A DNA stretch of 64,000 nt, from contig NW_025963791.1 in the NCBI RefSeq assembly GCF_023055435.1, positions 29,326,001-29,390,000 of the forward strand, written 5' to 3'. The stretch's first letter is position 1. Each line of letters starts with the position of its first letter. Under the pieces are notes generated by a model. It was given only the letters and a program-made list of their open reading frames with translations, ran no database searches and was not told where the DNA came from. The DNA is from Haliotis rufescens (lineage: Eukaryota). Below are positions 3,868 to 57,426 of the stretch, piece after piece. The position numbers were made by a program, and so were the translations under genes.

Positions 3868-4107
3868 ATATCCGGGTTAGAATTGGTCTTCAGCAACAAA
3901 TACTTGTCGTGAGAGGCGAGGCGTCTAAGGGGATCGGGTGGTTAGGCTTGTTGACTTGGTTGGTGCATGTCATCATATCTCAATTGCGCGGATCGATGCT
4001 CATGATGTCAATCACTGGATTGTCTGGTCAAGATTTAATCCGTTACAGACCCCTGTCATACAGCCGGCATATTACTGAAAGCGGCGTTAAACAAACAAAC
4101 AAACAAT
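3868..4107 (+). mobile_element. Short retroposon family C (no tRNA head; AAAC-repeat tail)
   Basis: ATCCGGGTTAGAATTGGTCTTCAGCAAC...CTTGTCGTGAGAGGCG...GCGGCGTTAAACAAACAAAC. Matches the copies at 8717, 42597 and 53536. Confidence 0.85.
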
Positions 4108-8716: not shown

Positions 8717-8982
8717 TTTTGTTTGTTTGATGTTGTTTAACGCCGCACTAAGCAATATGCCAGCTATATGACGGCGGTCTGTAAATAATCGAGTATGGAC
8801 CAGACATTCCAGTGATTGACATCATGAGCATCGATCAATAATTGGGATACGATGGCATGCATCAACCAAGTCAGCGAGCCTGATAACCCGATCCTGTTAG
8901 TTGCCTCTTACGACAGGCATAGTCGCATTTTGCGGCAAGCATCAGTTGCTGAAGACCTATTCAACCCCGGATCGTCACTAGT
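8717..8982 (-). mobile_element. Short retroposon family C, full length
   Basis: Colinear with the 42597 and 53536 copies, including the tandem GCYTGYCGYAARAKGCRACTA motif. Confidence 0.88.
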
Positions 8983-9111
8983 CCATTTGTTACAAAGCTA
9001 GGTGTTATAAGCTGGACCTGAAAGCTCCTGTGGTACAGAGATGGTTTGTCCTGTCGTGAGGAAGTCAAGTAGCGTCAGATGTTTCTGGGAAGAATGATGC
9101 TTGATCTATGG

Positions 9112-12246: not shown

Positions 12247-12831
12247 ATCATATAACGTTACATATTTTGCCATAGGCCTAGGATAGCTCTTGTAATGCTA
12301 GTCTGAGAAGGGACACAAAGGATAGAGTGTTCAGGCTCGGTAGTCTATAGCTGATTGTGTGTTATCGTACCCTGACGGCGTCATCACTTTCATCAATGAA
12401 TATCATAATTTTCTGGTTCATACTGGATTAATCACAGAAATAAATGGGATAATGTTGTGTACGACGTGAAACAACAAAAAATGTGTTCTTTGAAATCTAG
12501 CATCAAATTGACACAAATGCACATTCGGTGGAACTACATGCTACAGACAAATTACAAGTAGCCCTGCATGCACTACATGCTCTACTTAATTTATAACTAT
12601 TGCAGTTGCAGTTTTATCACACATGTCAATGCATTGCTGTGCCTCCATCCCGGTAAAATTAATTTCTTCAGAGTCCATAATTTGTCCATAAGATTTTTTG
12701 TGCCGTACAAATATGGTTTTGTGAGGTTTCCTATGTTTTATTGTCAGCAAAATAGCGCAGCTGGACCTGCACATGTGCATGTACAAAGTTATCAATAGAG
12801 TCACACGACATAGACAGACTGACACAGTTGC

Positions 12832-13101
12832 ATAACGGGTCGACAGGATGATTACAGGCCGTGGACGAACATGATAGAAGGAGCCATATGAGATAATTTC
12901 GAATACCACACCTTATTTTATTAAACCTGGTCACAACCATGTATATGGTGGTGTTAATCCCTGTTGCATCGTGTTTCTGTGTTACGTACATGATCATGCG
13001 TGTCGGTTCATGATCACTCGTGTGAATATAAAGCTTTCTGTTTGGCCACATGGCTGTCGGTTGTCTCTCGTTACTCCATGTCTGGGTGGTCGACCCGTTA
13101 T
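12832..13101. mobile_element. Candidate MITE (~270 bp), duplicated at 21987-22246
   Basis: 13-bp perfect terminal inverted repeat ATAACGGGTCGAC...GTCGACCCGTTAT; non-coding interior. Confidence 0.55.
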
Positions 13102-13258
13102 ATAAAGCCAAGGCTTTGATGTATGCAACCAAACAGGAGGTTTATTTCCATTCTACCGTAGACTGAGCATTAATAGACAACCATAAATCGCCCTAAGGCA
13201 AAATATGTTGGCTTGTATTCAAATAATTGAATTAAAATAATATGTACATGTACATATA

Positions 13259-14748: not shown

Positions 14749-15697
14749 TAAATGCATTAAACAAATTACTACTCTTGACGAGGTCAATATGCGAGAATAG
14801 ACCCTAGGCATGTGTTGGCGGCTTGTCAAGCTTCAGTGAAATGTTTAACAAAATGCAGGGATAGATGCAAAATTTAATGTGAGTGAGTTGGGTTTAATGA
14901 CGCTTTGGGTAGTATTCCAGTTATATCTCGGCGTGTCAGCTTGATGTTTGAGGAAAGCCTGAAGTGATGCAGATCTTGGACATTTATCAACACATTTGCA
15001 TTTCCAAACTTAATGTTTATATTAACTTTCTACGGTCCAGTTGGAGGAAGAAGTGCTGTAATGGGAATATTTCAACTCACATATACAGTGTACATGTTAT
15101 TTTGCTTTAACACCTCTTAACAATTGATAAGACTCCAGGATTCATGGCATTATCCATTCGTTCCCAGCCTGTCTGTTACATACATCTATCTTTATATATA
15201 ACGACACACGGTTGACCAAGTAAGTAAAGATTTACGTCAGTCATGGAGCTGGAATTGAACAATACAGTGGGACATTATAGACATATAGCATATAGCATGT
15301 TGGTCAAATGCCTTGAACGCCTGTGAAAAATGTCGGAATGGCACTGGATGAAAATTGTGACTTTCAGAGACTTCAAAGGAAGGTTTTTGTTTTATGAAAC
15401 CTTCAAAGACGACGATAACAACAGAACAGGAAAACGAAGCTTTGGGCAAATAACAATTGTTATAAAAGAGAACAATTTTATTACATGTTGAACTGGAGTA
15501 CTCGAGGATACAAGCAACATCTGCTGGTTAAGTGACAGTTTCTAACTCTTTAACTGCGGGGCAGTAAGTAAATAAGCGTAACTATCTTATTGCAAATTTA
15601 ACTCATTCTCATATCAAACTAAAAAACACATATAAGATTGCATATGAACAAGACTTATGCACTAATAATTTTGAACCAGTTTCATGTTTTATTAAAT

Positions 15698-15995
15698 CTG
15701 AGGGTAAAAGTGTGGGTGACGTAGTCGTATAAGGCACAACAGGTTTGCAAAATTGCGTCAATAAGGCGTGTTAGAAACCTATGATCGTGGGTTCGAATCG
15801 TAGCTAGATTGTTACATCTAAGACAAAAGGGTTGGTTTTCGCAGTCGTATAAGGCACAACAGGTTTGCAAAATTGCGTCCTTTTAGGTGTGTTAGACACA
15901 TATGATCGTGGGTTCGATTCCTAGATAGATTGTTGCATCACTCTGGGTCCCCCCACGTCAACTAATATCACTTAAATACGCTTCAGTTAAACCAC
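15698..15995 (+). repeat. Degenerate family-A SINE with its head tandemly duplicated (~120 bp unit)
   Basis: AGTCGTATAAGGCACAACAGGTTTGCAAAATTGCGTC...ATGATCGTGGGTTCGA occurs twice; there is a single copy in the paralogue at ~26200. Confidence 0.75.
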
Positions 15996-16682
15996 ATTAC
16001 CTTATCCCCTTTCGAACAAATACATTTTCTCTAAAGACTGGGGACAGGGATATAAAAGGTAGGTTTGATCAGCTTGGCCAGTGGTACATTAATGAGGTAA
16101 ACGTTACGTCAATCATTGTGTCATGGAAGAAGATCGGCTCGGGGGCGGCAGCGTTATGGTATGGGGTTGGATTACAGCAAGGCAGGGGACCCGTTTGATA
16201 GTGGTAGAGGGAAATCTCAATGGACAGCTCAACCGCGACGAGATCATCGGCCCTGTTGTTCTATCGTTTTTGCGTCGTCATGGTATTACCTTTCAACATG
16301 ACAACGCCCGGCCTCATATTGCTCGACTAATTCAGCATTCTCTTCAACAAAACAACGTGAATGTCATCCCCTGGCCCGCTCGCTCCCCTGATCTCTCACC
16401 AATCGAGCACATATGGGATGAGCTAGATCGGCGCTTTCGACGTCAACCACATGTTCCAAAGACACCCAAGGAACTTCGAAGCATGCCCTAACAAATATGG
16501 ACAGATATCCCACAGGACTTTGTGCGACGCCTGAGACGAAGATGTGTTGCTTGCATCGCAATCAGAGGTGGACACAAACGCTTTTGATTTGTAAATTGAC
16601 ATTTTGGCATGTTCATGTTGTTGTTTTTTAAATCACGCATTTTCTGAAGTCAGTATGGAAAATTAAACCACTTGAACACTTA

Positions 16683-17980
16683 CGAGGGCTGGCTGAAAAG
16701 TTCTAAGCCTAAGTGGGATATCTCAATCGGATTGAAACAAACTTTTGCCACCAACAAGTACAGTCATTTTATGAATCATAGACATAAGAACTGCAACTGG
16801 AGGGTTATTATTGTCTTTGTGCCAGACCATCTTGTGAACCTACCCATTGAAATCACCAGAAATGAACAAAACTGGCTATAGGGCAGTCATCAAGTACCTG
16901 CAACTGAAAGGGCTAACTACATCACAGATACATGCTGACATGGTCTCCACTTTAGGGGATGATGCCCCTTCCTTTTACACTGTAAAGAAGTGGGCTGCGG
17001 ATTTCAAGCGTGGCAGAGAAGGCCTTGACGATGACCCGCGTCAAGGAAGGCCTTCAACAGCAACCATTCCGGAAAACATTACCCTGGTGCATGACATGGT
17101 GATGGCAGATCGACGATTGACCACTCGACATATTGCCAGTGTTGTGGGCATCTCTCATGATAGGGTTGAGTACATTATCACCAACGCGTTGGGAAAGACA
17201 AAAGTTTCTGCGAGATTGGTGCCAAAGCTCTTGATAGCGGATCAGAAACGTGTCAGATTCCTGACGTCCCGTGACAATTTATGCCGTTTTGAAGCAGATC
17301 CCGATGATTTTTTTGGCCCGATTTGTAACCATGGATGAGACCTGGATTCATCACTTTCAACCAGAAACCAAAATTCAGTCTAAACAATGGAAGCATCCGG
17401 AATCACCAGCCCCCCCCCCCCCCCCCAAAAGCCAAGTCGGTTCCTTCTGCTGGAAAAGTGATGGCTTCAGTCTTTTGGGATTGCAAGGGTATTCTGCTGA
17501 TTGAAAAAGGCCAGACTATCAATGGAAGATATTATGCTGACCTACTGAGACAGTTGCGTGCAGCTTATCAAAGCTAAGCGAAGTTGAATGCTCACTAAAG
17601 GAGTTCCACCAAGACAATGCTCCTGTTCACAAATCGGTGGTTGCCATGTCAGCGATCCATGATTGTGGCTTCGAACTCATTGACCATCCCCCTTATTCAC
17701 CAGATTTGGCCCCGTCAGACTTCAACCTGTTTCCCAAAATGAAATAGGAACTAGCCGGTCGCCTTTTTCCTGGTAATGATGACGTCATTTCCGCCGTGAA
17801 GGTCTTTTTTAGGGTGGCTGAAGAAAATTTCTTCTTGATCGGCATCCAGGCCTTGCAGCATCGCTGGCAAAAGTGTGTAAACCTAGAAGGGGACTATGTG
17901 GAGAAATAAATGAAAACCATCGACTTGGTACCGTACCGGGTCTTTCACAATTAGACTTAGTACTTTTCAGCCAGCCCTCG
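16683..17980 (+). mobile_element. Full-length mariner (D,D34D) element, ~1.3 kb
   Basis: TIR CGAGGGCTGGCTGAAAAGT...ACTTTTCAGCCAGCCCTCG, with TA at 16681-16682 and 17981-17982. Confidence 0.96.
16862..17909 (+). pseudogene. mariner transposase, frameshifted
   Basis: YRAVIKYL, VSARLVPKLL, VTMDETWIH, HQDNAPVH...PYSPDLAPSDF (D34D) and GDYVEK*. Frameshifts lie near the T run at ~17310 and the C run at ~17410. Confidence 0.95.
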
Positions 17981-18524
17981 TACAGGACTCTTTTATCTGT
18001 TGCAAACCGAAATTGTTTCAGATTTGGTAAAAAATATAACTTTGCATTAAATCTTATTCAATGTCACAGGAACTTTTGTTGTTCAGTATACATACTCTAG
18101 ATTAAGCGCACCTGGCTAGCAAGCACGTGTATCATTAAATCCCATCTGGTAAATCCAACTTGCCACTTTCGGAGAAAAATCAACTTTGAAATGTTGAAAT
18201 CATTTCGGTTGGTATTGTCTCACGATCGGTAGTTTTCTGATGTAGCATCAGGTCCACAGTGTATCATATGCCTGTCTGAAGAACCGGCTAAATTTAAGAT
18301 CGGATGACTGCAATGTTTCGTTTCTTTACAGGCATCCGGGATATACTATAGATATTGACGATTACGTGGGCTTCGAACTCTCCCTCGATTATTTAATGTT
18401 TAATAAAGATGTTCGGTTGAAGGATGAAATACTAAACGCATAAGTAAGGAAGGAATGAGCATGAAAATGAACAGGCTTTACTAAATAAGGTGAAGGACAG
18501 AAGAATGATAATAGAAGAAGGATG

Positions 18525-18752
18525 ATTTTGCTTGTTATCTAACATCGCAATGAACAATAGTCCAGCTATATGAACGTGGTCTGTTTATAGTCGAGTAGAC
18601 AATCCAGTGATTGACATAATGATCATCAATTTACGTAGTGCGATCTCAATGACATGCATCAACGAAGTCAAGGAGTCTGACCACCCAATCCCATTAGTTG
18701 CCTCTCACAACAAACATGAGTTGCTGCAGATCAGTTCCGACCCGGATCGTCG
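18525..18752 (-). mobile_element. Family C retroposon, diverged (paralogue at 27345-27545)
   Basis: CAATCCAGTGATTGACAT...GTTGCCTCTCACAACAAACATGAGTTGCTGCAGA...CCCGGATC. Confidence 0.75.
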
Positions 18753-19953
18753 AGGGGAGAAGAAGGATGAAGGAAGACATTCAGCAGAAAATGTATGCAG
18801 AGGTGGCGGCGATGGAGAGAGGAGATAAGAATTCAAAGGCAATTATTTCAAGAATGAACCAGATCGAAACAGGGAGCTATAATTGACAGATTGATGAGGC
18901 CGTTGATCTGAAGTAATCATAGACGAAAAGCAAAACAAAAGGTGCACGAGAGAAATACATTTGTGAATTGAAATAAACTGGAATTTGTAGGGGTAATGAC
19001 ACACCAAAACGTAAATATACATATGGTATCATGATAGTTAAGTGGCTCTACAAAACATCGATACATTTGATGTATCCGATATGGACAACAGCAACTGTCA
19101 CTGTTGTTCAAAAGTAAGCGAAATGAATCGCCTTATCCCCTGATTTTACGTTTATATGAAAATAACATTTTTCTTTCCACTCTATATTAATTGTGGAAGA
19201 AAGCGGTCGATCCGTATGAATCTTCCCGCTGGGTATCCCGTTTCTGATGAGCTCGCTAGCGTCACGTCACGACGTCTCGGTTTATTTAAATGTGACATTT
19301 CGAAATGACGTCATAATGTTATTACGACGTATTGAATCTACGGCGTGTAGCTTATTATGCCTACTGTTAACCTTGCCGTTGAGTTTGTCAATCGCTATCC
19401 ATTGTCCTCATCATACATTGAGTGTTACTGTTAATAAGACGAACTACATCAGATACAGAAGTATTATTGTATATCGATTTCGACAACTTACCGACAACTT
19501 TTTTGTGTGTTTCCTCACATATCTCTTCTTGACAACAAACGTGAAATGTTTACCAACAAAGGGTATCGGAAGAAATATATGGAATCAAGGTTCATCAACG
19601 TTGACAATATGATATTACAGTTACCCACCCCAACCCCCACCACACCCCACCTCACCCCACCCCACCCCAACCCCCCAACCGGACACGCACGCACGCACAG
19701 ACACAAACACAGTCTGAGTTATTCGATTATCAGTAACAGCTGGACTCCTTTAGCTTAACATATATGGAGACAGATTGATTATGTTAATGTTAATGCTACG
19801 GCGGTTAGCTTACTATGCCTACTGTTAACCAAGTGGTGGAGTTTGTCGATCACCATATCGTATCCATTGTCCTAATCATACATAGCGTGTTAATGTAAAT
19901 AAGAAGAGGTACACCAGATACAGAATGGTTAATGTTTACTGATTTCTAATATA

Positions 19954-20114
19954 CAGTAAAGTACGTTCCTAACTAATACGCTTATAACGAACTGAAGGAT
20001 ATAACCTACTTTTTAGTTGCCGCCCTTTTGCTGTGTATATGCTTATGGCGAACTACGGTTATACCGGTCTAGAATTAGTGGTCCCTTTGAAATCGTTATA
20101 ATCGTAGGTTAATG
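19954..20114. mobile_element. TA-flanked MITE (Tc1/mariner-pogo type), same family as 51663
   Basis: TA-CAGTAAAGTACG...CGTTATAATCGTAGGTTAATG-TA; internal GCTTATAACGAACTG and GTGGTCCCTTTGA are shared with 51663. Confidence 0.7.
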
Positions 20115-22506
20115 TATGTTTGTCTGAGGTCCAAGGTTCAAGTCCCAAATAATCTTTAAACCGTAGAACGTGTTTATAGAAAGTCTAATGTGTTTCCTCA
20201 CATATATACTAGTATCTTCTTGAAAACAAACAGGGAAAAAATGGTTACCAACAAAGGGTATCGAAAGAAATTTATGGAAGTAAGGTCCATCAACGTTGAT
20301 AATATGATTCAGTTACCCTCTCCACCCGACACGCATGCACACACGCTCGGACACACACAAGCACAGACACAAACAAAGAGTTATTCGATTAACAGTAACA
20401 GCTGGACTCTTTTAGTATAACACATATGTGTACCGAAGGGAGACAGATTGAATATGTTAATGTTCGTTGGTATACACTTGAAACATTTCTCACGAAAGAA
20501 GTTCAAGATGAGTCAGGCGAGCATCACACACACTATAATCAAGTTTACGGTCAATATGATGGCTCTACAGTGACTGTTAATGTGATACTTCCCGTTTATT
20601 TTTACGAAATGTTCTTTTCAGCGTATCATCAAGAGCAACGGAAAACATCGTCAGACAGCTTTCTATGAATAAACACTCGTCGGATACTTCTCTTAATAGC
20701 AGCGACGAGCGTATCATCTTTTATTATGATGCCAAAACAACTCTACTGTCTGCTGGCCTGGTCTTTCGCTCAGGAAAACATATTGCACAGAGACTGAAGC
20801 TTAGCGACTGTTATGAATCAGATAGTAATCATGTAGTATTGGATCAAACTTGGGATGCAGCATTTTGTTCAACAATTATTTGATTGCGATCAGTTGCAAA
20901 CTTACTTCAGATACTGAGACTGTATTTAATAGGTCTGGAAAATTGATACGTATATATGCCATCTCTACAAAACACTTATTTTTGCCATTTACTGTCTGCG
21001 AAATAAGCAGATGTCGTTCTGGACAAAGATAAGATATGGACACTGTCTGGTAGAGTGACAATAACAAATTAGAAAGTAGGATAATTGAGTTCTTATATAT
21101 TGTTCAGACAATTTTCATGTTTGCGCACGCGAGACTGATAACATGATATATTTCAGAATCATTACCCGAGGTTCATACGTTATTTCCCTAACCTTTACTT
21201 TGTACACATACTTGCATTAAACTGACGTATTCTGGCTGGATGGAAAATATGTTTACACATTGTTACTCATAATACACGCATAATAACATTTGCTCACACA
21301 TTAATTCAATCAAGCTGTTTGTGTTCCATGAAGAGGGCATTGGACGTCACCTGTGTCATCAAGGGTTCCAGGGAGCATTCATGCCAGCATAAGAGCATTG
21401 GAAGGATAGTCTAGTATGAAGTATGAAGTTGTTAAGCAACTGGGTAGACATATTTGTATATAGGCGCTCGGTGAGGCAGCATGATGTGATAGATACTTCA
21501 ATATCTACATATCAAAGCTATATCCAACTCATCATGTTGAAAGGGAAACAAAGCTATATGAAAAACATTTCCAACGTGTGTTTGCTGAACTATAAAGTAT
21601 CTGATTTCGATTTGCGTCGAAGGATCTGAATTCGCATTAAATTGTTGAGCAGCATAGCCGAATGTAAACGGGTGGGGATGCGATGTACAAACACTGTATG
21701 TACTCGGTATACTACAGAATTTATAACTATATCAGTTTTAGTTTTATCACACATGTCAATGAATTACTGTGTCTCGATCCTGGTAAAAATAATTTCTTTA
21801 GAGTCCATAATTTGTTTGCAATGCACGAAAAAACAAATCTCGAGCTGAGATTTTTTGTCCCTACACGTATGGTTTCAAGAGGTTTCTTATGTTTTACTGT
21901 CAATAAAATAGCGCAGCTGGGCCTCCACGTGTACTTATTAAAATTCACCAATAGAGTAACACGACAAGGACAGACTGACACAGTTGTATAACGTGTCGAC
22001 AGGATGATTACAGGCCGTTGACGAACATGATAGAAGAAGCCATATGAGATTATTTCGAATACAACAGGTAGTTTTATTAAAACTGGTCACAACCGTGTAT
22101 ATGGTGGTGTTAATCCCTGTTGCATCGTGTTTCAGTGTTACGAACATGATCATGAGTGTCGGTTCATGATCACTAGTGTGAATATAAAGCTTTCTGTTCT
22201 GTTTCTGTCTCTCGATACTCCATGTCTGGGTGGTCGACCCGTTATATAAAGCCAAGGCTTAACGTTTGATGTATGCAACCAAACAGGAGGTTTGTTTCCT
22301 TTCTACCGTTGATTGAGAATTAATCGACAACCATAAATCGCCCTAAGGCAAAATGTGCTGGCGTGTATTCAAATAATTGAATTAGAATAACATGACACCA
22401 TAGGTTTTCATTCCAAAATTTATTCCTTGCTATGAATATTCTCGGAATTACACATTTGCGTTTCTAAACTTAATGTTTATATTAACTTTCCATGGTCCAG
22501 TTAGAG

Positions 22507-22787
22507 TGAGTGAGTGAGTGAGTTTGGTTTAACGCCGCTTTTAACAGTATTACAGTTATATCACGGCGTGTCAGCTTAATGTGGGAGGAAAGCCCGAAGT
22601 GATGCAGGTCTCAGACGTTTACCACTTCGGTGAAACCCACGAGCACGGGTATGGTGCTGATAAACCTACAAACATAATCGGGGCGAGCCGGGATTCGAAC
22701 CCACAATCATAGGTTTCTGGCGTTCAAGGGACGCAACTCTGCACAGAGAAACGCGGCGAATTAGACGACTGGGCAACCCGCGCCCCC
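22507..22787 (-). mobile_element. SINE family A, full length with TSD; absent from the paralogous site
   Basis: Flanked by TGGTCCAGTTAGAG / TGGTCCAGTTGGAG; empty site CGGTCCAGTTGGAG at 15033. Confidence 0.93.
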
Positions 22788-25700
22788 TGGTCCAGTTGGA
22801 GGAAGAAGTGCTGTATTGGGAATATTTTATTTCACAGATACATGTTATTGTGCATTAACATCTCTTAACAATCGATAAGACTCCAGGATTCTCTTAGTCA
22901 TGGCATTATCCATTCGTTCCCAGCCTGTCTGTTCTCCATACATTTATCTCTGTATATAACGACACACGGTTGACCAAGTAAGTGAAGACGTCAGTCATGG
23001 AGCTGGAATTGAACAACACTCTGGGACATTTTGGAAGTATTGTGTGTTGGCCAAATGTCTTGAACGCCAGTGAGAAATGTCGGGATGGCACTGGAAAAGA
23101 ATTGTGACATTCAGAGACTTCAAAGGAAGGTTTTTGTTTTATGAAACCTTCAAAGAAGACGATAACAATAGAACAGGGAAACGAAGCTTTTGGCAAATAA
23201 CAATTGTTATAAAAGAGGACAACTTAATTACATGTTGAACTTGAGTACTGGAGGACACAAGCAACATCTTCTAGTTAAGTGACACGTTCTAACGCATTAA
23301 CTGCGGGGCTGTAAGTAAATTAACATAACTATCTTATTAAAAAGTATCCTCATTCTATTGTCAAACTAAATAACCAATATATGATTTCGTTTTAAAATGA
23401 ACAATTCACTAATAATTTTGAACCATTTTCAATTTTGATTACATCTGACAATGTAACAGGGAACCGACGCCCATGTTTGTTCTGTTATTTGAGACAAATA
23501 ACATTTGTTATAAAAGAGAACAATTATTACAAACTCATTCTCATACGAAACTAAATAACCTACCTCAGATTGCATATTTACATGAAAAATTCATCTAATT
23601 ATGTACCAGTTTAATTTGTGAAAGGTAATAGAGAATAAGGGTGACCCAGTCATCTAACTTTCAGGCGTTGCAATTAGATGTGTAGAGTTGCGGCCCTTAG
23701 GCTTGTTAGAGACCTATGATCGTGTTGGCGAATCCTAGATTCGCCCAGATTCGCCCTCGTTTGTCAGCCGCACTCGTTGGTTTCACCTGAGTGGTAAATA
23801 TCTGAGACTTGAATTACTCTGGGCTTTGCTCCCACATCCAATAACATACCTAAAAAACCTCTTCAGTAACCACATTAACGTATCCCTTTCGGAATGGGTG
23901 AGTTTGGTTTTACGCCGTTTTTAAAATATTCCAGCAATGTAAACATGAAACGCCAAAGAATAAACAGTTTCAATTATCCAAGGAAACAGGTCTTTTTGGG
24001 CGTAAAAAGCAAAACATCGGTGAAAAGTATAAGAAAGGACGACTGAAAATCAGTGATAAGACCGTGTTTCGCTAAAATGGTTAGCATGTCCTGCCCAGCC
24101 GATAGCATCCGCAACTCACACAATTTTGCATTAAAAAGTATCTTGTTGTAGCCTGACATCGCAGAGCAGTACTCCTGGCATCGGCGGCGGGTAAAGAAAC
24201 TACACAATCAAGTGATGAACCAGAAATCCGGGCACGCGATAGCCCATTTTCTGATTTTGTTCTAATTACCCAAAAAACAGTGAATGCCATCTTGTCTGAA
24301 GGTTGAGGACAGGGATATCAAAGCTATATTTGATCAGCGTGGCCAGTGGTGCATTTATATGTATTCTCACACGCAATGGGATTATATGGTTGGGCTTAAA
24401 TAACATCTTTTAAATTGGTTATACCATTGTCCTGCGATGGGTAGGTATTCCTTGGTAGAATTAGGTCTCCAAATGCATCCTAAAGAACCAGCTAAGTTTA
24501 GGGTCGGTTGGTGGCAGCATATTACATTGGTTAGGTGACCTTAGTATCAAACACACACGTGTGGTGTCCAGGCTCGTCCTTTTACATTCATCCATGATAT
24601 AGGTTTACACTTTTACGCAGGTAAGTAAACTTCAAACCTGGTCACAAATAGGTCCCATGTTGATGCTTACAATGGCCTCAGGAGTTGTATGAAATAAATA
24701 AATTCAATATGTATTGAAATATTCATTCAAATCACAATACCTTATCCCTTGTTACGAATCTGGTCAATATCAACGATGTCACCGGGGACATGAATATATT
24801 GATATATTTGATGAATTTAACACAAGTGTCAACTTATTGCCAATATCAATATGTAAAGATGTAATTTGTAAAGGCTCATGTACTTGAGTCTCGTCAAGAG
24901 TAATCATTCATTTTGTTATACCGAAATTCACTTTAATGTACAAGGTTTATGAAGCCTTTAAACTGTTTCCTTCGTCCCTTGTTTCATTACAGTAACCTAG
25001 ATGCGAACCGTGACATGTTACTGCCAGACGCCACACACGTAGCAAACACATTTACATATTCAGCTGTACTGGTGGTGTAATAAAAAGTTTCACTATTGTG
25101 AATAGTGATTCATAAACACTTGATAATTACATACATGTAGTCGGAATTATTCAAGAGACTGCTTTTAGCAGAGAATCCTTACGATTATTGACAGGATTTT
25201 CTTGATTTTATTCATAAGCAGCTCGATCCGCTTTCCGTGGGTTCGAAACACACATTCGCCTGTTTATAATCGTTAGCAGAATCACACTTGTGTTCCTTAT
25301 TTTCATCAAAGTAATTACCCTCTACGACCTACCTTTCTTTGGACTACCAAGAAAGAAAGAAAATACTGTGTAAATTTCAACCCCCACAGTTTTAGGTACA
25401 TATGCATCTATCTGCCTGTACATATCGTATATAATATCATACTTGGTTACGATGGACACACACGTAATGCATATCTGTAATGTCTATTTGATGATCGGCT
25501 CACTTTCCCATGCAGGAATTGCATTGGAATGACGAGCATGTGTCTGGAAACTAAACCAGATTGGAACACGTACTTAGCAGCGTTTCTGATACATGAGACT
25601 CATTACCTGAATTGCACTACGTGTATTACCATCTCTTATGATAGCTTTGTCAAAGCTGTATGTGGCTCCCTCAGAAGTTCGTTCTTCGTCATTCGTAGTA

Positions 25701-28700
25701 ATGAGATTGCTAACAAGTAAGGACTTCAGTCATGGAGCTGGAATTGAACAACACTGTGGGACATTATGGAGGTATTGTGTGTTGGCCAAATGTCTTGAAC
25801 GCCAGTGAGAAATGTCGGGATGGCACTGGAAGAAAATTGTGACATTCAGAGACTTCAAAGGAAGGTTTTTGTTTTATGAAACCTTCAAAGAAAACGATAA
25901 CAATAGAACAGGAAAACGAAGCTTTGGGCACATAACAATTGTTATAAAAGAGGACAACTTTATTACATGTTGAACTGGAGTACTGGAGGATACAAGCAAC
26001 ATCTGCTAGTTAAGTGACACGTTCTAACTCATTAACTGCGGGGCAGTAACTAAAAAAACGTAACTATCTTATTACAAACTCATTCTCATATCAAACTAAA
26101 TAACCCATATAGGATTGCATATTAAAATGAACAATTCACCAATAATGATGTACCAGTTTCATTTTTGATTACATCTAACAGTTAGTCATCTGAGGGTAAA
26201 AGGGTTGGGCGACGCAGTCGTATAAGGCACAACAGGTTTGCAGAATTGCGTTCATTATGCGTGTTAGATACCTGTGATCGTGGGTTCGAGTCCTAGATTG
26301 TTGCTTCGCTCGGGGTCCTTTTACAACAAATGGAATAGCTGATAATACGCTGGAGTATAATCACATAACTGTATTGTCTTCCGAACAAATATATTCAATG
26401 CTGTTCTAATTAAAGCGCATAACACAGTTGATGTCATTTTATCTGACGGCTGGGGACATATATAAAAGGCAGATTTAACCTGCATGGCCAGTGGTACATT
26501 AATACATATAATATATGAATTCTGACTCGCAATGAGATATAGTAAAGGCTTAACTGGTACCTCTTAAATGGGCATTGTCCCGTGGTGGGTAGGCATTCGT
26601 GAGTAGAATTAGGTCCCAAACTGTATGCTACGAACCAGCTACATTTAGGATCGGATGGATGCAGTGTGTAATTATTTAGATGATCGTAGTATGAACTACG
26701 TATGTGTCGTGTCGAGACTCGTTCCTATACAAGTATAGTGATGAAACTTTTAGTCATGTAAACTCAAGAAATGTTCAAAACTGGTCACGAATTAGTCAAT
26801 ATCAACGACGGGCCTGGAGACAGATTTGCGAGAAACACCTTCAGCATTGATGGATTGATGGTTTTGAAACAATGTTGTTACCAATAGAGATGACCAGAAC
26901 ATAAAGCGATAAAGCTTTACCACGATAAAGCGGACCTGGTTCTCAAAAACACGTTGATCATCAAACACCTTCTGGTAAATCCAACCTGCCACTTTCGGAA
27001 AAAAATCAACATGGAAATGTTGAAATCATTTCGATTGGTATTGTCTCATAATCGGTGGATATCCCTATATGGCATAAGGTACACAGTGTATCATATGCCT
27101 GTCTGAAGAACCGGCTAAATTTAAGATCGGATGGCTGCAATGTTTCGTTTCTATACAAGCATCCCTGATATACCTTTAATATAGACGATTACATGGAATT
27201 CGAAGTCTCCCCTGATGAATTCATGTTTATGAAAGATATTAGGATCCAGTAAACGCATAACTAAGGAAGGAATGAGCATGAAAATGTACAGACTTTACTG
27301 AAGGAGGTGAAAGACAGAAGAATGGCAATAGAAGTAGGATGATTTCGTTTGATGTCTAACACCACACTCAACAATATTCCAGCTGATGGCGGGGGTCTGT
27401 ATATAGTCGTGTAGGCAATCCAGCGATTGACATCATGAGCATTGATCTACGCATTTGGGATTCAATGACATGCATCGACCACCAAGTCACTGAGTCTGAC
27501 CACACACCGGGGTTGCTGTGGCCATCAGTACTGACCCGGATCGTCGAGGGGAGAAGAAGGATGAAGGAAGACATTCAGCAGAAAATGTATGCAGAGGTGG
27601 CGGCGATGGAGAGAGGAGATAAGAATTCAAAGGCAATTATTCCAAGAATGAACAAGAGCGAAATAGGGAGCTATAATTTACAGATTCGATGAGGCCGTTG
27701 ATCTGAAGTATTCATAGACGAAAAGCCAAACAAAAAGGGCATGAGAGAAATACCTTTGTGAATTGAAATATACTTGAATTTGTAGGGGTAAGGACACACC
27801 AAAACGTTTTGTTTAATGGTGTAAAGATAGATTGGTATCGTGATAGTTAAGTGGCCAGACAATACATCGACATATGATCTATTTGATGTATCCGATATTG
27901 ACAACAGCAACTGTCACGGTTGTTCACAAGTTAGTGAAATGCGGCACTATATCAGGTACAAAAGAAAGCGGTCGATCTTCCCGCTGGATATCCCGTTTCT
28001 TCTGAGCTCGCCAGCGGATGGACGTCCCGACGTGTCGGTTATTTAAAAATGACATTTCGTAATGACGTCATAATGTTATTACGACGTATTGAATCTACGG
28101 CGTGTAGCTTATTATGCCTACTGTTAATCTTGTCGTTGCATTTGTCAATCGCTGTCCATTGTCCTCATCAAACATTGAGTGTTACTGTTAATAAGACGAA
28201 CTACATCAGATACAGAAGTATTATTGTTTACAGATATCCAATGTGCAGTAAACTACGTTCATAACGAACACTCTCATAACGACTGACAGATATCACGAAC
28301 TTTTTTTGTATTTTTTCTTACATATCTCTTCTTGACAACAAACGTGAAGTGCTTACCAACAAAGGGTATCGGAAGAAATATATGGAAGCAAGGTTCATCA
28401 ACGTTGACAATATGATATTACAGTTACCCTCCCCCAACCCCCATCCCCCCCCCCCCCCTACCCAACCCGACACGCACGCTCGCACGCGCACAGACACAAA
28501 CACTCTTTGAGTTATTCAATTATGAGTAACAACTGGACTCCTTTATAGCTTAACATATATGGAGACAGATTGATTATGTTAATGTTCGTGGGTATACACT
28601 TGAAACATTTCTCAAGAAAGAAGTTCACGATGAGTCAGGCGAGCATCACAAATACTGTAATCAAGTTTACGGTCAATATGATGGCTCTACAGTGACTGTT

Positions 28701-30805
28701 AATGTGATACTTCCCGTTTATTTTTACGAAATGTTCTTTTCAGCGTATCATCAAGAGCAACGGAAAACATCGTCAGACTGCTTTCTTTGAATTAACACTC
28801 GTCGGATACTTCTCTTAATAGCAGCGACGAGCGTATACTCGTTTAATATGACGATACTGTGATGCAAAAACAACTCTAATGCCTGCTGGCCTGGTCTTTT
28901 GCTCAGGAATACACAGATACTTCTCTGTTTATCACTGAAGCTCAAAGACTGTTATGAATCAGATAGTAATCATGTAGCATTGGTTCTAAATTGGGATGCA
29001 GTATTTTGTTCAACAATTATTTGATTGCGATCAGTTGCAAACTTACTTCAGATACTGAGATTGTATTTATTAGGTCTGGAAAATTGATACGTATATATGC
29101 CATCTCTACAAAACACTTATTTTTGCCATTTACTGTCTGCGAAATAAGCAGATGTCGTTCTGGACAAAGATAAGATTTGGACACTGTCTGGTAGAGTGAC
29201 AATAACAAATTAGAAAGTAGGATAATTGAGTTCTTATATATTGTTCAGACAATTTTCATGTTTGCGAACGCGAGACTGATAACATGATATATTTCAGATT
29301 CATTACCCGAGGTTCATACGTTATTTCCCTAACCTTTACTGTGTACACATACTTGCATTAAACTGACGTATTCTGGCTGGATGGAAAATATGTTTACACA
29401 TTGTAACTCATAATACACGCATAATAACATTTGCTCACACATTAATTCAATCAAGCTGTTTGTGTTCCATATAGAGGGCCTTGGACGTCACCTGTGTCAT
29501 CAAGGGTTCCAGGAAGCATTCATGCCAGCATAAGAGCATTGGAAGGATAGTCTAGTATGAAGTATGAGGTTGTTAAGCAGCTGGGTAGACATTTTTGTAT
29601 ATAGGCGCTCGGTGAAAAAACATCCATGATAGATACTTGAATATCTACATATCAAATATATCCAACTCATTATGTTGAAAGGGAAACAAAGATATATGAA
29701 ATAATTTCAGTCTTCAAACGTTTTTATTTCCAACGTGTGTTTGCTTAATGGTAAAGTATCTGATTCCGATTTGCGTTGTAGGACCTGAATTCGCATTAGA
29801 TTGTTGAGAGGAATAGCCGAATGTCGAAGGGTGTTGGACACGCGCCTTGATCTTGCACTTAGCGTTCCACTGGATCTATATACATGAACGTCTTCTTGTT
29901 GTGCTCTGGTTCAGTTTCACGGGATCACTAGTCCTTTTCACCACAAACACGAACAGATACATTATCATAATATAATACCTACTCATCTAGGCTTGTAGTA
30001 TACTATAATGGTATGGTAACATGTATGGCAATTGTCATAGTAGTTATCTAAGTACCTTAATGGCCTCGTTCGTGGCGTTATCGTTACAGGTAAAACTTAA
30101 ACGCTTCCAAATATTTTGTTTCTGGTAGAAAAACAGTTTATTGTGTAATTATTACAGGCATAAAGTTTCATGTTTTTCTTCCAATGTTCTTTAACGATCA
30201 TGTGATGTATTGTCGCCACATTGAATTGAGGAAGAGTAGATAAAAAAACTGCCTTAGAACTACGAAGGTGTTACACGTTTATAGATAAATGTACGTGAGA
30301 ATCAGCATCCTCTCATACGGGTCTTCACGCTCAATTACATTGTCAGACATAGTCTAATGAAGCGAAAGCGAGGCAGCATTTACTGTAATAAGCAGGCACT
30401 TACGACAGGAAATATTTATTTGACTATTTATCACTTTTTATACGGATTGAGCTACAACTGATGTTAATGATTTCAACTGGTTTCCGAAATCACGTCTATT
30501 TTAATGGCACCTCCAGTAAAAAGTGGGTGATACGTTTCAAGAGACAATTCAGTCGGCAAAATCTAGCATAAGTGCTCGTTATTTTGTCAAGCTAGAAACC
30601 GTTCCGGAAATTGCGTAAGTTTATCTGTTAAGGAACAACGTTTGAGTGGAGCAAAATGAAGACGTGAAGCATGTGTGCATGTAGGTACAGTTAGGACCGA
30701 GTCTCATGTGCCGCCTTAAGGGACCATGATATCCGTTAAGTGGGAAGTAAATATCTCCGTATAGCACGAGGAAGAAAAATGTTTCCTGATGACGGTTTAT
30801 GCCTT

Positions 30806-31116
30806 GAGTGAGTGAGCGACTGAGTGAGTGAGTGAGATTCAGTTGACATTTACGCCTCTTCGGACAGTATTCCAGGTATATGGTGACGGTCAGCTTAATG
30901 GGGGAGGAAAGCCCGTATTGATGCAGGTCTCAGGCGTTTACCACTTTGGTGAAACCCACGAGCACAGGAATGGTGCTGACAAACCTAGAAATATAATCGG
31001 GGCGAATCGGGGTCGGATCCCACAATCATACCACAATTATTCTGGCGTACCAAATGGACGCAACTCTGCGTAGCGAGATGCGGCGCCTCAGACGACTGGG
31101 TCAACCGTGCACCCCG
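30806..31116 (-). mobile_element. SINE family A
   Basis: GAGT tail, TGATGCAGGTCTCAGGCGTTTACCAC body and head ending GTGCACCCC; GTTTATGC repeated at both flanks. Confidence 0.88.
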
Positions 31117-31181
31117 TTTATGCTCTAAATTGTGTATTCTACAACATGTACATCACAATTTTGAAAGATAGTCACTTATGA

Positions 31182-31351
31182 GTGAGTGAGTGAGTGAATT
31201 TGGTTTTACGCCGCTTTTAGCAATATTCCAGCAATATCACGGCGGGGGACACCAGAAATTGGCTTCACACATTGTTCCCATGTCGGGATTCGAACCCGGG
31301 TCTTCAGCGTGACGAGCGAACGCTTTAACCACTAGGCTACCCGACCGCCCC
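31182..31351 (-). mobile_element. SINE family B, full length with TSD
   Basis: Direct repeat TAGTCACTTATGA on both sides; near-identical to 7931. Confidence 0.93.
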
Positions 31352-31836
31352 TAGTCACTTATGAAGAAATCTGGTTTAATGATTGCGAATAGACAAAAAC
31401 TGATTCATTAATAACAGCACACGAATCTTTTCAAAAGTTCAGTATTTGTAAAGTTTGATCATGTTTGTTTCCTTGCATTTACGTGAACTAGCAAAACTGT
31501 TAAAAAATACTTTAATATTTCAAAGTCAGTTTGCTTGTCATGACAAACATGGTGCGCTTAACATACAGAAATATATTGGTAAGCGAGCTTCAGATTTCCT
31601 CAGTGTATGAGTGTGTATAATCGTTGGTTAATAACAGATGTCTTATTAGGTTCTTGTATTAGAATGTGTCTTAGAATTTCAAGAAGTCTGAAATATCACA
31701 TCAAACACCGACAAAGAAACAATTTCTTTTTCATTAAAGCCCCAGCCACAATCTACACTGTTCGGGAATGCATTTGGGTATTCTAGATTAAGCTATGTAT
31801 CCTTTAAAGAAAACATAACTGTTGTTGTACCTGAGA

Positions 31837-42400: not shown

Positions 42401-42596
42401 ATTCTACCATTGACCTAACCCACTCTTAAAGATATTAAACACGTTCTTTGTTTTTTGGCTCATTTCGGGGCATTTGCTTCGATAGCATATACAGTGATTT
42501 TAATGTTGTGACCCCAATTGGAAGGAGACTGCTCACGATATTTTGGTCAATATTAAAATAACTGACGAAGGTTGTTATTGTCAACAACAGAGAAGT

Positions 42597-42858: not shown

Positions 42859-45199
42859 AACAGAGAAGTCATCTGTGATTAAAGGATCTGAGGTTGGTAG
42901 TAGTATGATGATTCTTGGTAGCCACATGTAGTGGAATTTACATCATGACCTGTCATGTTCACGTTCTACAACACGTTCCTATAATTGAACAGCCTGGATG
43001 AAATGATGTACGGAGTGGAAAATTAGTGGCGGTTCCTGAAATTATAAATATTGGGGGACGTTTTTGGAAACTGATTTTTGAAAGAGAATGTTACTTAAAT
43101 TTAAGGCATCGATTCCCTTTCCAAATATCAAATTCAAGAACATTCTACCTTTGTCTGATCTTGTGGAATATGTTTCCGCTGATGATGCTTATGATATACG
43201 CTTATGAAATATTCGGAATCGCACAATGGATTCAAATTTTAGAAGAAATTTCTTCTTTTATGGAATGTTTTATGGTCATACGTGTACATTCATATTACTT
43301 GGACCTAGATCCTGTTGAGATGACATCCCTAGGGCATTTCATAACATTACGATTAGTAATGAGCTTAACATATACAATTGTCCAATCCATCTACGATATG
43401 GAATCGATGTCAGACATCCCGGATTAATTCATATCTGTATTTGCGTTCGCGATATAATACATGAACAAACAAACAGTGGTAAACGTCATGTTTTGTGCAT
43501 GCAACGGCTGGGGATGGGGTGGGGAAGAGCCTATATACACTTATGTCTGTCACTACTCTGAACTCACCTTTGGACCTCCATTAGCCTCGATGGACAATCT
43601 ACGTTGGCCCATGTATGTTGACATGAGGTCAATACAATTGTGGATTATACGAGACGATATATACAGAATACATAAATGGATGAAATATCATAGTTATTGA
43701 GGTCTATTTTTATACTGATGTGACAACCTCTCGCATATGTGAAAGGGTAATGCACGCAAATTCTGTTTGGTTTTGATTTAGTAGCAATGTAAATATGACT
43801 ATAGTATTACAATTTAAATATCGCACTGTGTCCATGAATACATCGCATACCGATATTCCAATTTCCATCAATATGCGGTCATATTACTACAAGAGAAATA
43901 CAATTTTGTCACGTTTCGATGTTAACACACACATATATATTTCATGTCTGACATTATTCATCCTTTATCTTTCCTTCAGTTTGTCATTGATATATTCTCA
44001 GATCGTACTTGTCAGCATTTCCAAACAAACCCAGACCCAGTACGGTTGACCTACTAGTCAGAGTAATTGTATGCGCATAAGGTAGATGATATGCATGCAT
44101 TCATTATACAAATGTAATACAATCCGACATATGCTGTGCCACGAGAGATTAAACTGGTCGTGTTGACATCATACATCAGGGCTATCTGTTTCATTCTAAT
44201 TCCAGGGCGTAATGCTGAAAGCACATTATTAATGAAATTAATGAATCCAGATATGTTTTTTTAAAAATTGAAAACTATGACCCTTTTTTGAACATATGGA
44301 AGCATGTAAGGGTCGTCTGCCTTTTTTTTTCTTTTTTTTTATAAATTTCTAAATTCTATGAATTTCAAGATAATGCCTTACCTTGGAATACATATGTGTC
44401 GTGTACATGTTTTGTTAGTTCACTTAATTACACTGGCGACGGCAAGTTGTGAACAAGTAGTATTTGTGACTAAATGTCAACTTAGTATCTTGAAATTTCA
44501 AGTAGTATCTATAAATAAAAACAAATAAAAAAGGAAATAACAGGTATTTTTGGGGTCGGACAATTTGTCTGTTTCAACAGTCGGAATAACAATGCCTTTC
44601 AAGAAATATCCACCCACCCTAACATTATCAAATGGTTTGTCCCGTATGCATATCTATTGCAAGTGTTAGAATAAGACTAATACTTTCGTTTCTTTTACTA
44701 TTTACTATTAAAATTATTTGTTTAGATTAAATAACAGATGCATGACTCCTTTATGTTACCGGTGATTTGGACGATGCTTTGGCACATGTACACGTGCTAC
44801 AATTTCTCTATAGCACATTGCTCAATGAAGAATAATAGATACAAGCAATTATCTGTACGTGCATGCCCGTTGTAATAAGCTGTCCTTTAGAATCAGACTA
44901 CTTATCGGTGATTAGAGACCTTGATTGTTACCACGTGTGTGTAGCCTATGTCATCCCCATGCATCGTTCTCGGGAATTCACAGCTTAGTTACTCTACGCA
45001 CAGTCATACATGTAGGTCAATTTGGTTTGGGAAGAAAACATAGTACATCATAAAAAAATAGATGGAGATGAACAGCTGTTGAGACGATAACCTAAGATTC
45101 CGATTATCATCGCTATGTAACTTTGCAAGTGGCGTTCATGGGAAGCCGCATGGTTATTGTCTGTCGCGTCTCCTGCCAGGCTTCTTGCATCATATAAGA

Positions 45200-45365
45200 G
45201 TGAGTGAGTGAGTGAGGTTTTACGCCGCTTTTAGCAATATTCCAGCAATATCACGGCGGGGGACACCAGAAATGGGCTTCACACATTGTACCCATGTCGG
45301 GAATCGAACCCGGGTCTTCGGCGTGACGAGCTAACGCTTTAACCACCAGGCTACCCGACCGCCCC
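45200..45365 (-). mobile_element. SINE family B, full length with TSD
   Basis: Direct repeat GCATCATATAAGA at both flanks. Confidence 0.93.
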
Positions 45366-53515: not shown

Positions 53516-53535
53516 TTGTCACATACGACCATTTA

Positions 53536-53798
53536 TTTGTTTGTTTGTTGTTTAACGCCGCACTTAGCAATATTACAGCTATATGACGGCGGTCTGTAAA
53601 TAATCAAGTCTGGACCAGACAATACAGTGATTGACATCATGAGCATCGATCCACGCAATGTGGATACGAAGACATGCTTGAAACAAGTCAGCGAGCTTGA
53701 CAGCCCGATCCCTTTAGTCGCCCTTACGACAGGCATAGTCGCCTTTTACAGCAAGCATTTGTTGCTGAACACCTGCTCTAACCCGGATCCTCACGGGT
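53536..53798 (-). mobile_element. Family C retroposon, full length with TSD
   Basis: Direct repeat CATACGACCATTTA at both flanks; 5' end ACCCGTGAGGATCCGGG. Confidence 0.93.
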
Positions 53799-56700
53799 CA
53801 TACGACCATTTAAGGACCATATACACTGTGATAGGCATTGCGGTATTAATACACAGCTATTTGGTTTACTGTGTACATTAAACCTCGCCCGCTTAATGGT
53901 GACAGTTATACCGTATCTAATAAAGGTATGGCAGAAAAGTGTCTCATGTCTGACTGATTTTAATATCATGCTATTTTTATGATCCTATTTATAAGGTTAA
54001 TACCTGCAGTATGTTTGGATTGATAACCTTAAATTAGTTGAATATCAAATCAGTATGCTTATCGAAAAGGACACTGAAAGGGTACGAATTACGCCGCATT
54101 GATCCACAAGAACATTGGATTCATATTGTTCTCAGTCCTCGCAACATGCTATGCCATGCTGGGTTCTGTAATTAGCTGCCTAGATTAGCTGGTCGTAGGT
54201 TCCCATCCTAGGCGCGATCAGTCTATGATTTTTTGCTGGTATCCCTGCCACTGGGTTTCGACGTCGTGGCACTCATCTACGACCTACGATAATTGGCGCT
54301 TTCCTCACACTCTGAGCTGGCCGATGATATACACTCCATACCTCACTACGGGTGTTATGTGTTTCAAGTCGTTCATCGTTATCATTCAACAATTACGAGA
54401 AACTACTATTACTATCGCTAACAATTTTGGAAATGTTAAGTTATTTCTTGGTATCCCCTACTTTTTTTAAAGAGTATATTACAGAAATACCGTCCATATT
54501 ACGTTTTACGATAATGCCAGCAAGTTCACACAAGTCAAACAAATTGTATATGAACAAGCAATTCCGACGAACAAGTAATCAATTAAGTTGGGTCTAATTC
54601 AAAATTTTCTATCACATAAAGGTCTTGTGTTTATGAGTAATATGTTTTGACGTCTGTTCTTTGGAAACACGTCTCCAGTGAAGCAACGCTCGTGAGATTT
54701 ATCATTTGTTCACTCAAATCTCAACACAGACACATCTTATACGACTCCTCGGGGCACACTAAAATACCTACTTGATTGTTGCTTTCATAGCAGTTAGTAC
54801 TTGGGGAGTGATCATGAACGGCCATCTAGACCTTTATGTAATAGAAGATCGATCGCGTCTAGCCCTTGTGCCTGATTAACTTTTGAAACATCTTGGATCA
54901 AAGCTTCGTGTCTGTTAGCATCGATGGAATAGAAGGAAATATGGGACACCTTTAGTGTCTTTCGCGAAACTATTTCAAACAGTGTCCTATACTAAGTGTT
55001 GCGATTGCTAGGCTGAACGTGAATACTGAATGAGAGCGGTTCAGAATTCGTCTCGATAGTCCTCAATTGGGTCTTTGATACTTTCAAGCGGGCACGAAGA
55101 TGGCCATGGTATTAACACTTATGACCCTAGCAAATTATTTCATAATATAACAGCCAAGGGACTATCCCACATTCGACTGTCTACTGCCTTACAATAGGCG
55201 AAGACGTGTGACGGTGCAGCTATCTTCCTGGAGTTCAGTACAATGTGGTGTTCCCAGACGGCTCAGCGTAGGGTTCTTCAATGTCCTACAGCTCCGAATC
55301 AGGTTCCATGAGCTGAGGGTCGTGTTGATCGTTCAGACAGTATGTCTTTAATCTCCTATAATGTTTTAGCAGACGGTGTTCAAAAGGGATTTTGCTATAT
55401 TGTCTGATCAGGTTTACTTTGAGAAAACATTGTTCAAAGAGAGGCGTATAAATGACAAAAAGGATATATTCTTTCATCCTAGACAGAATTACATATTGAT
55501 TGGTGATGCTTACAGATACAATATAGATGAAGAATGATACACCGTTGGTTTTTATCATTGTCCGGAAACTCGTTTCCTGACATCTACTGTTTCGAACGTC
55601 CATATAAGAAAGAAAAAAGGTGTTTGTTTGGTATTACGAACGTTTTAACTAGTGAAAATTCCGTCCACATTATCTAGTTTTGACCGGACTCTGTAATGAT
55701 ACATTTTATATCATAGAAATGTGAGAGACATTTGTGAACTATTATCCTTGCAAGGACAATGACATCTGGTGTCTTGTCCTTTCTTGTGAGAGAATTTGAC
55801 TGGTGTTTTAACACACGAATATAACGTTGGTACTGCAATAGGTAGTTGTTCAATATCGATGTCTCAATGTCCAGTAAGAAATTGAGAGCTCAGATGTTGA
55901 CTTACGTAAAAAGAGATGCCAAAATAAAATATTTTTAAATCTAAAAATGTTCATCATCAAAAATTGTTTTAGAAATTAAACATGTTCACGGTAAAGTGGG
56001 GAATGTGCTCAATAGTTATCTCCCTTTTTCCACCGTGAAGATGTAACTGTGTTTTTTTTATCGAAGAGTGGGTGAGTGAGTGATTTGGGCTTTCGCAGCT
56101 TTCGGTGCAGACTTCTAGGCTATCGAAGAGGGCATGTTCATGTTCATTGCATATCAGTACAACATGTTACATGTGATTAGGAATATTTCGACTACCAACA
56201 TATTTGTACTGGTAATTTTGGTAGTTTTTTGTTTGTTAACATATGCTACAGATTCAAATTTCATGCTTTGTGATTATATGTTGATGTATATATATTAAAT
56301 GGCGTAAAAGTCGTGACAAATTAGCATTAAATATCGACATAATATCCTTCAAAAGTTAACGATTCAATTTACAATGTAATATGAATGTGAAAAAAGGAAT
56401 GTGTCCGTTTTTTGAAACCACATATGGCGTTCTAAATTTGCATGCATCTTGTTTGTTTGAATATAGTCGTTATAGTATTATTTGTTGGTGAGTTGGTTTG
56501 TTACTTTTCGTTGGTAGCTTGATTGGCTGGTTGTGCGGATGCGTGATTGATTGGCTTTATAGCAATGATATGAATAACTTCCACGACGTCGGGTAAAGAT
56601 GACACGCAAGAATGTGATTTAATGGGATTTTACGGCAAGGAAATATTCACGGCTGATTAAAGCTCTTCTAGTTAAATCGTAGTATTTTGCAACATGACAC

Positions 56701-57144: not shown

Positions 57145-57426
57145 GGGGGCACGGGTGGCCTAGGCGTCTAAGGCGCCGCGATTCGCTGTGCAGAGTTGCG
57201 TCCCCTGGGCATGCCAGAAACCTCTGATTGTGGGTTCGAATCCCGGTTCGCCCCGATTATGTTTCTAGGTTTGTCAGCACCATACCCGTGCTCGTGGGTT
57301 TCACCGAAGTGGTAAACGTCTGAGACCTGCATCAGTTCAGGCTTTCATCCCACATTAAGCTGACACGCCGCGATATAACTGGAATACTGTTAAAAGCGGC
57401 GTTAAACCCAACTCACTCACTCACTC
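57145..57426 (+). mobile_element. SINE family A, full length with TSD
   Basis: TCCTTAGGTCAGT repeated at both flanks; A/B boxes and ACTC tail present. Confidence 0.93.

Follow-up and report, generated by a model that had tools for sequence, protein, structure and literature searches.

How does a retroposon without a tRNA head come by a precise 5' end? The question is raised by a 64,000-nt stretch of the Haliotis rufescens genome (hereafter the window), in which two copies of one short element, both on the minus strand, open with the same letters, ACCCGTGA(A/G)GAT. An earlier sequence-only reading had described both as bounded by target site duplications (TSDs) and as sharing their start; the TSDs, of 14 and 11 bp, and the start letters are confirmed. 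The element is a TSD-bounded retroposon of ca. 255 bp without a tRNA head, and its copies and flanks include the following (model R1 is described below).

53536..53798, minus strand: very probable LP-SINE copy, ca. 255 bp plus CAAA repeats; somewhat decayed, with 88% identity to a typical copy
53799..53812, minus strand: 5' TSD of the 53536 copy, 14 bp; its last base is G, the usual first base of most copies
53522..53535, minus strand: 3' TSD of the 53536 copy, 14 bp
53550..53592, minus strand: 3' tail common to tRNA-headed SINEs, resembling the Nimb/I-like LINE tail of this genome
42597..42858, minus strand: second full-length copy; begins at A without the G; 59.1 bits with model R1
42859-42869 and 42586-42596: TSD of the 42597 copy, 11 bp
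8718..8985, minus strand: third near-full copy, hairpin duplicated
3870..4106, plus strand: single-hairpin copy, 5'-truncated
18527..18760, minus strand: old diverged copy, within a local duplication with 27344-27540

The window contains roughly a dozen more pieces of the element. The local duplication spans several kilobases in tandem (12582-21674 versus 21712-29833, 81-87% identity), with an old SINE copy in each unit.

A fixed 5' end without a tRNA head

For an unbiased view of the 5' ends, 29 copies were chosen via the element body alone. Seventeen reach the 5' end, eight begin at positions 60-72, in the duplicated hairpin, and four begin in between. The 5' end of the SINE is therefore fixed, ordinary truncation aside, as had been proposed, although not all copies are full length. 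The start base itself needs amending, since most copies carry a G ahead of ACCCG as their first base: a 24-nt head has 12,773 exact matches in the 1.33-Gb genome, of which 9,669 (ca. 76%) start with G and 3,104 otherwise. Of 27 copies whose TSD is good, 15 have an extra G separating it from ACCCG; in seven of eight non-G copies other bases occupy this place, so the additions are not specific to G. Forward-strand matches in the genome to a pattern based on the hairpin core number 7,640.

Copies 53536 and 8718 have two tandem units of the 22-nt hairpin, as had been noticed (with 8717 as the boundary), and so does the 42597 copy, where the second unit is broken. One successful SINE subfamily is without part of the second hairpin. 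Minisatellites built of the 22-nt unit or of an 82-nt head occur as well (L071/L072, L081-L083, L090).

No polymerase III promoter was recognized in the head, in agreement with the sequence-only reading. The A box is absent from the three copies scanned, and a loose B-box pattern appears once, at body positions 139-150, outside the head; the scan is rough, as one tRNA-headed control gave both boxes and the other only B. The head thus lacks the A and B boxes of a tRNA-derived SINE (SINE2), and no longer, tRNA-bearing version of the element was seen among the copies examined. The 3' tail is indeed common to two tRNA-headed SINE families of the window, one at 3441-3720, 22504-22787, 30826-31114 and 57145-57426, the other at 7928-8098, 31177-31353 and 45195-45365, but these end in (CACT)n.

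The family is very probably a published LP-SINE

The family had been put forward as possibly new. Its sequence characters, however, make it very probably the Haliotis LP-SINE of Matetovici et al. 2016 (PMC4758252), and the SINE as such is not new. In the text available from that paper, LP-SINEs are described from Haliotis (Hdi_LP, Hmi_LP), Littorina, oysters and a fly (Lsa_2, Oco/Oed_LP and Sgl_LP among them), with a head of ca. 70 nt homologous to the 5' ends of the LINEs Nimb-17_LMi, I-3_DR and RTE-9_CPB; this LINE-derived head was suggested to be a promoter. LP-SINEs are TSD-flanked and tRNA-less, and the 255-bp consensus of Hmi_LP from H. midae agrees in length with the element here, in a comparison that covers layout and length rather than the letters of the Haliotis consensus. 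The copies studied here likewise have variable TSDs, 3' short tandem repeats and no tRNA head, and their head opens two intact Nimb/I-like LINE families. The scallop LP head (supplement S2 of PMC4758252), compared by eye, agrees with it in core sequence and in the layout of the pseudoknot. The poly(A)-like hexamers AATATA and ACTAAA of the published elements and the AATATT in the tail here do not match exactly.

The head is predicted to fold into two pseudoknots

Relatives of the head were gathered with a 17-nt core from other families of the genome, 120 metagenome loci and viral contigs. Aligned with these, the LP head looks like two consecutive pseudoknots in the predicted RNA fold. Its first half runs S1 5' strand, U, S2 5' strand (7 nt), S1 3' strand, a variable insert, AGAAUA and S2 3' strand; its second half runs S3 5', S4 5', S3 3', UG, a UCG-UAAGAGG-CGA hairpin, CUAA and S4 3', such that S4 pairs the S3 loop with the segment after CUAA. 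In the 53536 copy the predicted parts are as follows.

53794..53798, minus strand: stem S1 5' strand, at the element start
53786..53792, minus strand: stem S2 5' strand, within the S1 loop, after a one-base U loop
53781..53785, minus strand: stem S1 3' strand
53774..53779, minus strand: A-rich linker, AGAAUA in most families, with two changes in this copy
53767..53773, minus strand: stem S2 3' strand, closing pseudoknot 1; 6 of 7 pairs in this copy
53700..53766, minus strand: second half of the head, with S3, S4 (pseudoknot 2) and the UCG-UAAGAGG-CGA hairpin
53738-53752 and 53717-53730, minus strand: tandem 22-nt hairpin duplication

The sequence-only reading had seen a paired head with overlapping helices. 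A structured head with a pseudoknot is retained, but the helices do not overlap: they form an H-type pseudoknot with a one-base U loop and a 7-bp stem.

Covariation across families supports stems S2, S3 and S4. Among 15 non-viral heads, 87.8% of cells pair, and the covariation score is 0.421, compared with 0.193 for shuffled alignments (0 of 500 shuffles reached it) and no more than 0.162 for slid partners; both members of a pair have changed in five pairs of S2, three of S3 and none of S1. With 23 families, S2 forms 129 of 161 pairs, a count that includes one mis-parsed family, against a permuted mean of 89.4; S3 forms 78 of 92 against 51.7; and S4 scores 242 against 189. In none of these three did any of 20,000 permutations reach the observed value, although the values are not strict probabilities because the families are related. 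Covariation, which had been suggested as a check, is thus seen for S2, S3 and S4 across families, whereas the invariance of the hairpin and core holds by construction, since the core was the search pattern. The GAGG and CCUC halves cited earlier do occur, but in different window copies and not as compensatory changes; true covariation lies between families. Single-sequence folding energies were not above those of shuffles (z -0.24 to -1.85 in all five stretches), as is expected for pseudoknots.

The Rfam search also suggested at that point, run on the whole window and 12 loci, gave no match on the head, ribozyme and xrRNA-type families included. An HDV-like descriptor (P1-P2-P3-L3(UYCNCGY)-P1.1-P4-J4/2 as a nested double pseudoknot; 0 of 398 background segments positive) was negative on all three window copies, and the SINE head has no P3-L3. 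By eye, the consensus structures of the pistol, twister, hatchet and hairpin ribozymes do not fit the head.

Two LINE families carry the fold, one of them behind a predicted HDV-like ribozyme

The sequence-only reading was right to link the motif with LINE 5' untranslated regions (UTRs): the same head opens intact LINE families. The LINE at locus L216 is TSD-bounded; its ORF1 frame is 453 aa long, and its ORF2, of 1,229 aa, has APE, RT and RNase H domains. From its domains and PMC4758252 it is classed as Nimb/I-like. Its tail resembles the SINE tail but has a different terminal repeat. In this LINE family 1 the first 58 nt (L216:9113-9170, minus strand, near 22565670 of G000:C2) are predicted to form an HDV-like ribozyme that begins, with G1, directly at the TSD and runs up to S1. 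The descriptor that fails on the SINE is positive here, and the modelled fold places G1 at the 5' end of the element; the match to RF02682 is weak, its 28.5 bits falling short of the gathering score of 44. Forward copies in the genome number at least 226. LINE family 2 shares 72-74% identity with family 1 in ORF2 and is without the ribozyme.

Of 30 LINE loci picked by their downstream UTR, 15 proved to belong to each family. Thirteen of the family 1 copies start at the ribozyme G1, two are truncated elsewhere and none starts at S1. By contrast with this ribozyme-led family, 14 of the 15 family 2 copies start at TCCCCG, flush with the fold. Among six family 2 copies examined more closely, all have TSDs of 10-16 bp, which adjoin S1 (TCCCCG) in five, and four have ORF1 and ORF2 intact. 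Family 2 starts with U, without an extra G, and has no other 5' module.

Flush 5' ends recur in unrelated families

Five unrelated families (the SINE, LINE family 2 and metagenome families A, B and C) start at S1 or one base before it, and in A, B and C the bases upstream are random. Non-coding SINE families of molluscs and other animals also have the fold at their exact 5' end. The first base differs between families (G, U, A, G), the extra G is absent from LINE family 2 and metagenome families A and B, and the distance from S1 to the conserved core is 44-68 nt, or ca. 105 nt in one family. The variation in first base and in distance indicates that the 5' end follows the structure and not a ruler.

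Other arrangements were met in the same material. One metagenome family has an LP head followed by tRNA-like sequence, as in scallop MESC SINEs (L106, L122, L125, L131, L134, L162, L171, L173). In a further set of metagenome copies the second half of the head is retained, but a pyrimidine tract stands where S1 and the S2 5' strand would be (L108, L121, L152, L161, L172, L174, L202). An AT-rich satellite with a period of ca. 640 bp (L218; G000:C57:2176000-2181000 onward) consists of dozens of units, each with a pairing-intact LP head. In prokaryote assemblies, 7 of 25 matches score 42-67 bits (L446, L451, L453, L454, L461, L462, L463). These full heads are probably contamination by animal retroposons, since several flanks are LINE-like or RTE-like; a held-out parse of S2 in the seven gave 33 of 49 pairs, with three heads at 7/7 and at least two mis-parsed.

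The fold occurs in viral contigs

Model R1 was built from non-viral heads only. It matches the 53536 copy at 53701-53801 with 31.7 bits and six viral motifs with 38-70 bits, compared with at most 24 bits for 21 other core-pattern loci. Four of the fold-bearing contigs have RNA-virus hallmarks (a Peptidase_A21 capsid in two records, a nodavirus capsid, RdRP_3 and RdRP_4), the fifth has an ORF without a Pfam match, and the sixth is a 212-kb DNA virus contig (L341). In five contigs S1 starts 6, 10, 23, 75 and 101 nt after the stop of the last ORF, with 88-184 nt left to the 3' end of the contig, and L091 has a second, tandem copy that is cut by the contig end. In L341 the fold (L341:1451-1530) lies between two ORFs, 122 nt past one stop and ca. 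140 nt before the next ORF. Each viral S2 has a sequence of its own, with 41 of 42 pairs formed overall; this speaks for selection in the virus and against chimeric assembly. No more than five RNA-virus-like contigs came out of 7 scans; looser viral patterns gave only chance phage matches (21 loci at 24 bits or less, 19 at 21.4 bits or less, and 12 with none at E 0.001).

How the 5' end may be made

We tentatively favour, at somewhat under an even chance, the reading that the LP head is an exoribonuclease-resistant RNA (xrRNA) that trims read-through transcripts to the element start, a mechanism absent from the options of the sequence-only reading. SINE copies would lie inside host Pol II transcripts, which XRN1/XRN2 would degrade from the 5' side until they stalled at S1. 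The surviving RNA, its 5' end fixed and its tail of LINE type, could then be copied by a Nimb/I-like reverse transcriptase through target-primed reverse transcription. An RNA with a 5'-OH end is no XRN substrate, and for this reason the RNA of LINE family 1 would keep the ribozyme ahead of its fold. In viruses, a block at the fold would leave a subgenomic 3'-UTR RNA. An exonuclease block is favoured because it would act at the RNA level, set the 5' end at the S1 base, tolerate an upstream ribozyme and serve a virus where its 3' UTR begins. Known xrRNAs are found in this position, frequently as tandem copies (PMC11702639, PMC8374639, as excerpted), the ST9a xrRNA halts Xrn1 at the P1 base (PMC11702639), and ribozyme folds have been proposed to shield R2 template RNA against such exonucleases (PMC11331408, in the text available). 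Five of the viral LP copies likewise place a predicted pseudoknot at the start of the 3' UTR, in tandem in L091.

Several observations fit this exonuclease block less well. If the fold stalled decay of family 1 RNA, some copies starting at S1 might be expected, and their absence among the 15 counts against it. LINE family 2 would need cap-independent translation, and the fold in the L341 contig and the L218 satellite is not demanded by the model. No likeness of the LP head to xrRNA classes 1-3 or to coremin was found. The frequent G ahead of ACCCG in the SINE could come from a cap, although LINE family 2 and metagenome families A and B are without it, and a successful SINE subfamily does without part of the second hairpin.

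In three small-RNA runs, whose size-selected libraries favour none of the readings, the SINE collected 7, 104 and 14 reads and the LINE head 0, 160 and 2; these are mostly antisense and ca. 31 nt long, with no sense pile-up at any 5' end. In run X22, two piRNA-like antisense species of ca. 31 nt, each with a single start, account for 63 molecules against the SINE body (L042:1538-1568, plus strand) and 127 against the LINE LP head (L255:1564-1594, minus strand).

Three other explanations compete with the exonuclease block. The fold could be a translation or RNP element (a cap-independent enhancer, an IRES-like structure or a protein-binding site) for uncapped RNAs, whose coinciding 5' ends would be made otherwise. 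Its position after the ribozyme in LINE family 1, where the RNA would be uncapped, is in keeping with such a role, as are its occurrence in RNA-virus 3' UTRs and ahead of an ORF in L341 and the tie between UTR ribozymes of retroelements and viruses and translation initiation (PMC13725137, in part). We regard it as unlikely, as it leaves the flush ends unexplained, including those of SINE families that code for nothing and still keep the fold at the very 5' end. An internal Pol II promoter that also folds, like the dual Pr77 of L1Tc, has been anticipated in the suggestion of PMC4758252 and would give an autonomous LINE family 2 the 5' module that it otherwise lacks; the G before ACCCG in about three-quarters of SINE heads, and in 15 of the 27 TSD-defined copies, is likewise what a Pol II start with a G copied from the cap would leave. 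However, a promoter does not call for compensatory pairing in the head, the core-to-start distance varies, LINE family 2 starts with U and most non-G copies carry other extra bases. Moreover, because RNA viruses have no DNA phase, a DNA promoter cannot explain their copies, a difficulty that it shares with the unusual internal promoter considered in the sequence-only reading. This explanation therefore appears rather improbable.

That reading had also offered self-cleavage, which is now a weaker proposition. A ribozyme of an undescribed class, cutting at the S1 base and possibly slowly, would account for flush 5' ends and for the conserved unpaired AGAAUA, UAAGAGG and CUAA; the order hairpin-CUAA-helix recalls P4-J4/2-P2 of HDV-like ribozymes, and slow ribozymes are known from UTRs of linear RNA viruses (PMC13725137, in part). 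Yet neither the descriptor nor Rfam recognizes a ribozyme in the head, the would-be cut-site base varies (G, U, A), and cutting off a viral 3' UTR would destroy the template. LINE family 1 also keeps a separate ribozyme upstream: efficient self-cutting at S1 would strip its first 58 nt, and no copy of the 15 starts there, so self-cleavage is disfavoured and we judge it about as improbable as the promoter.

Significance

The wider form of the exonuclease-block reading, which we hold as a possibility a little more doubtful still, is that the LP head represents a new xrRNA class common to animal non-LTR retrotransposons and unrelated RNA viruses, and that it yields transposition RNA from host read-through without promoter or ribozyme. 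The head would then be a 75-nt xrRNA candidate at tens of thousands of genomic sites. If true, this would add a third way of defining the 5' end of a retroelement and an xrRNA active in cellular genomes; xrRNAs in cellular RNAs were an open question in 2021 (PMC8374639, in the part available). It would also explain the precise 5' ends of promoterless SINEs and some LINEs, connect retroposons with RNA viruses by way of an RNA module passed between them, and provide a small stabiliser for RNA.

Three observations are new here: an intact Nimb/I-like LINE family (family 2) flush with the fold, a sister LINE family that has an HDV-like ribozyme directly before the fold and starts at that ribozyme, and the finding of the fold in six viral contigs by a model of non-viral heads. 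We found no report in the literature searched of the fold, its viral distribution or the ribozyme-plus-fold arrangement; figures, Repbase, Dfam and Ruminski 2011 may hold one. Whatever the mechanism, a covarying fold that is undescribed and occurs both at retroposon 5' ends and in viral 3' UTRs calls for explanation.

Comparison with known systems

The available text on LP-SINEs (PMC4758252) proposes a promoter and reports no RNA structure, viral copies or upstream ribozyme. As described in the parts of PMC5786205 at hand, the HDV-like ribozymes of R2, RTE and L1Tc/NARTc offer a precedent for RNA structure that defines a retroposon 5' end, as the LP head may do. Unlike them, the SINE head is without P3-L3; LINE family 1 provides a clear example of such a ribozyme just ahead of the fold. 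Class 3 xrRNAs (ST9a, SCNMV, PLRV; PMC11702639, as excerpted) have a P2 and an L2B network, both absent from the LP head. Stacked P1/P2 with an L2B protrusion and a J1/2 bulge were not found in it, because the S1 loop consists of U plus 7-8 nt, all taken by S2. The LP head further differs from class 3 in that a second pseudoknot and a conserved hairpin follow, in its occurrence in retroposons and in that its resistance is predicted. The coremin xrRNA (xrRNA-C; PMC10520033, in the text available) resembles the LP head in its short GUC...GAC hairpin, its UAA-like spacer and its place in viral 3' UTRs. The loop of coremin hp1 is YGAD or YGNNAD, whereas that of the LP hairpin is UAAGAGG or UAAAAGG, and coremin is without an upstream pseudoknot, which the LP head has.
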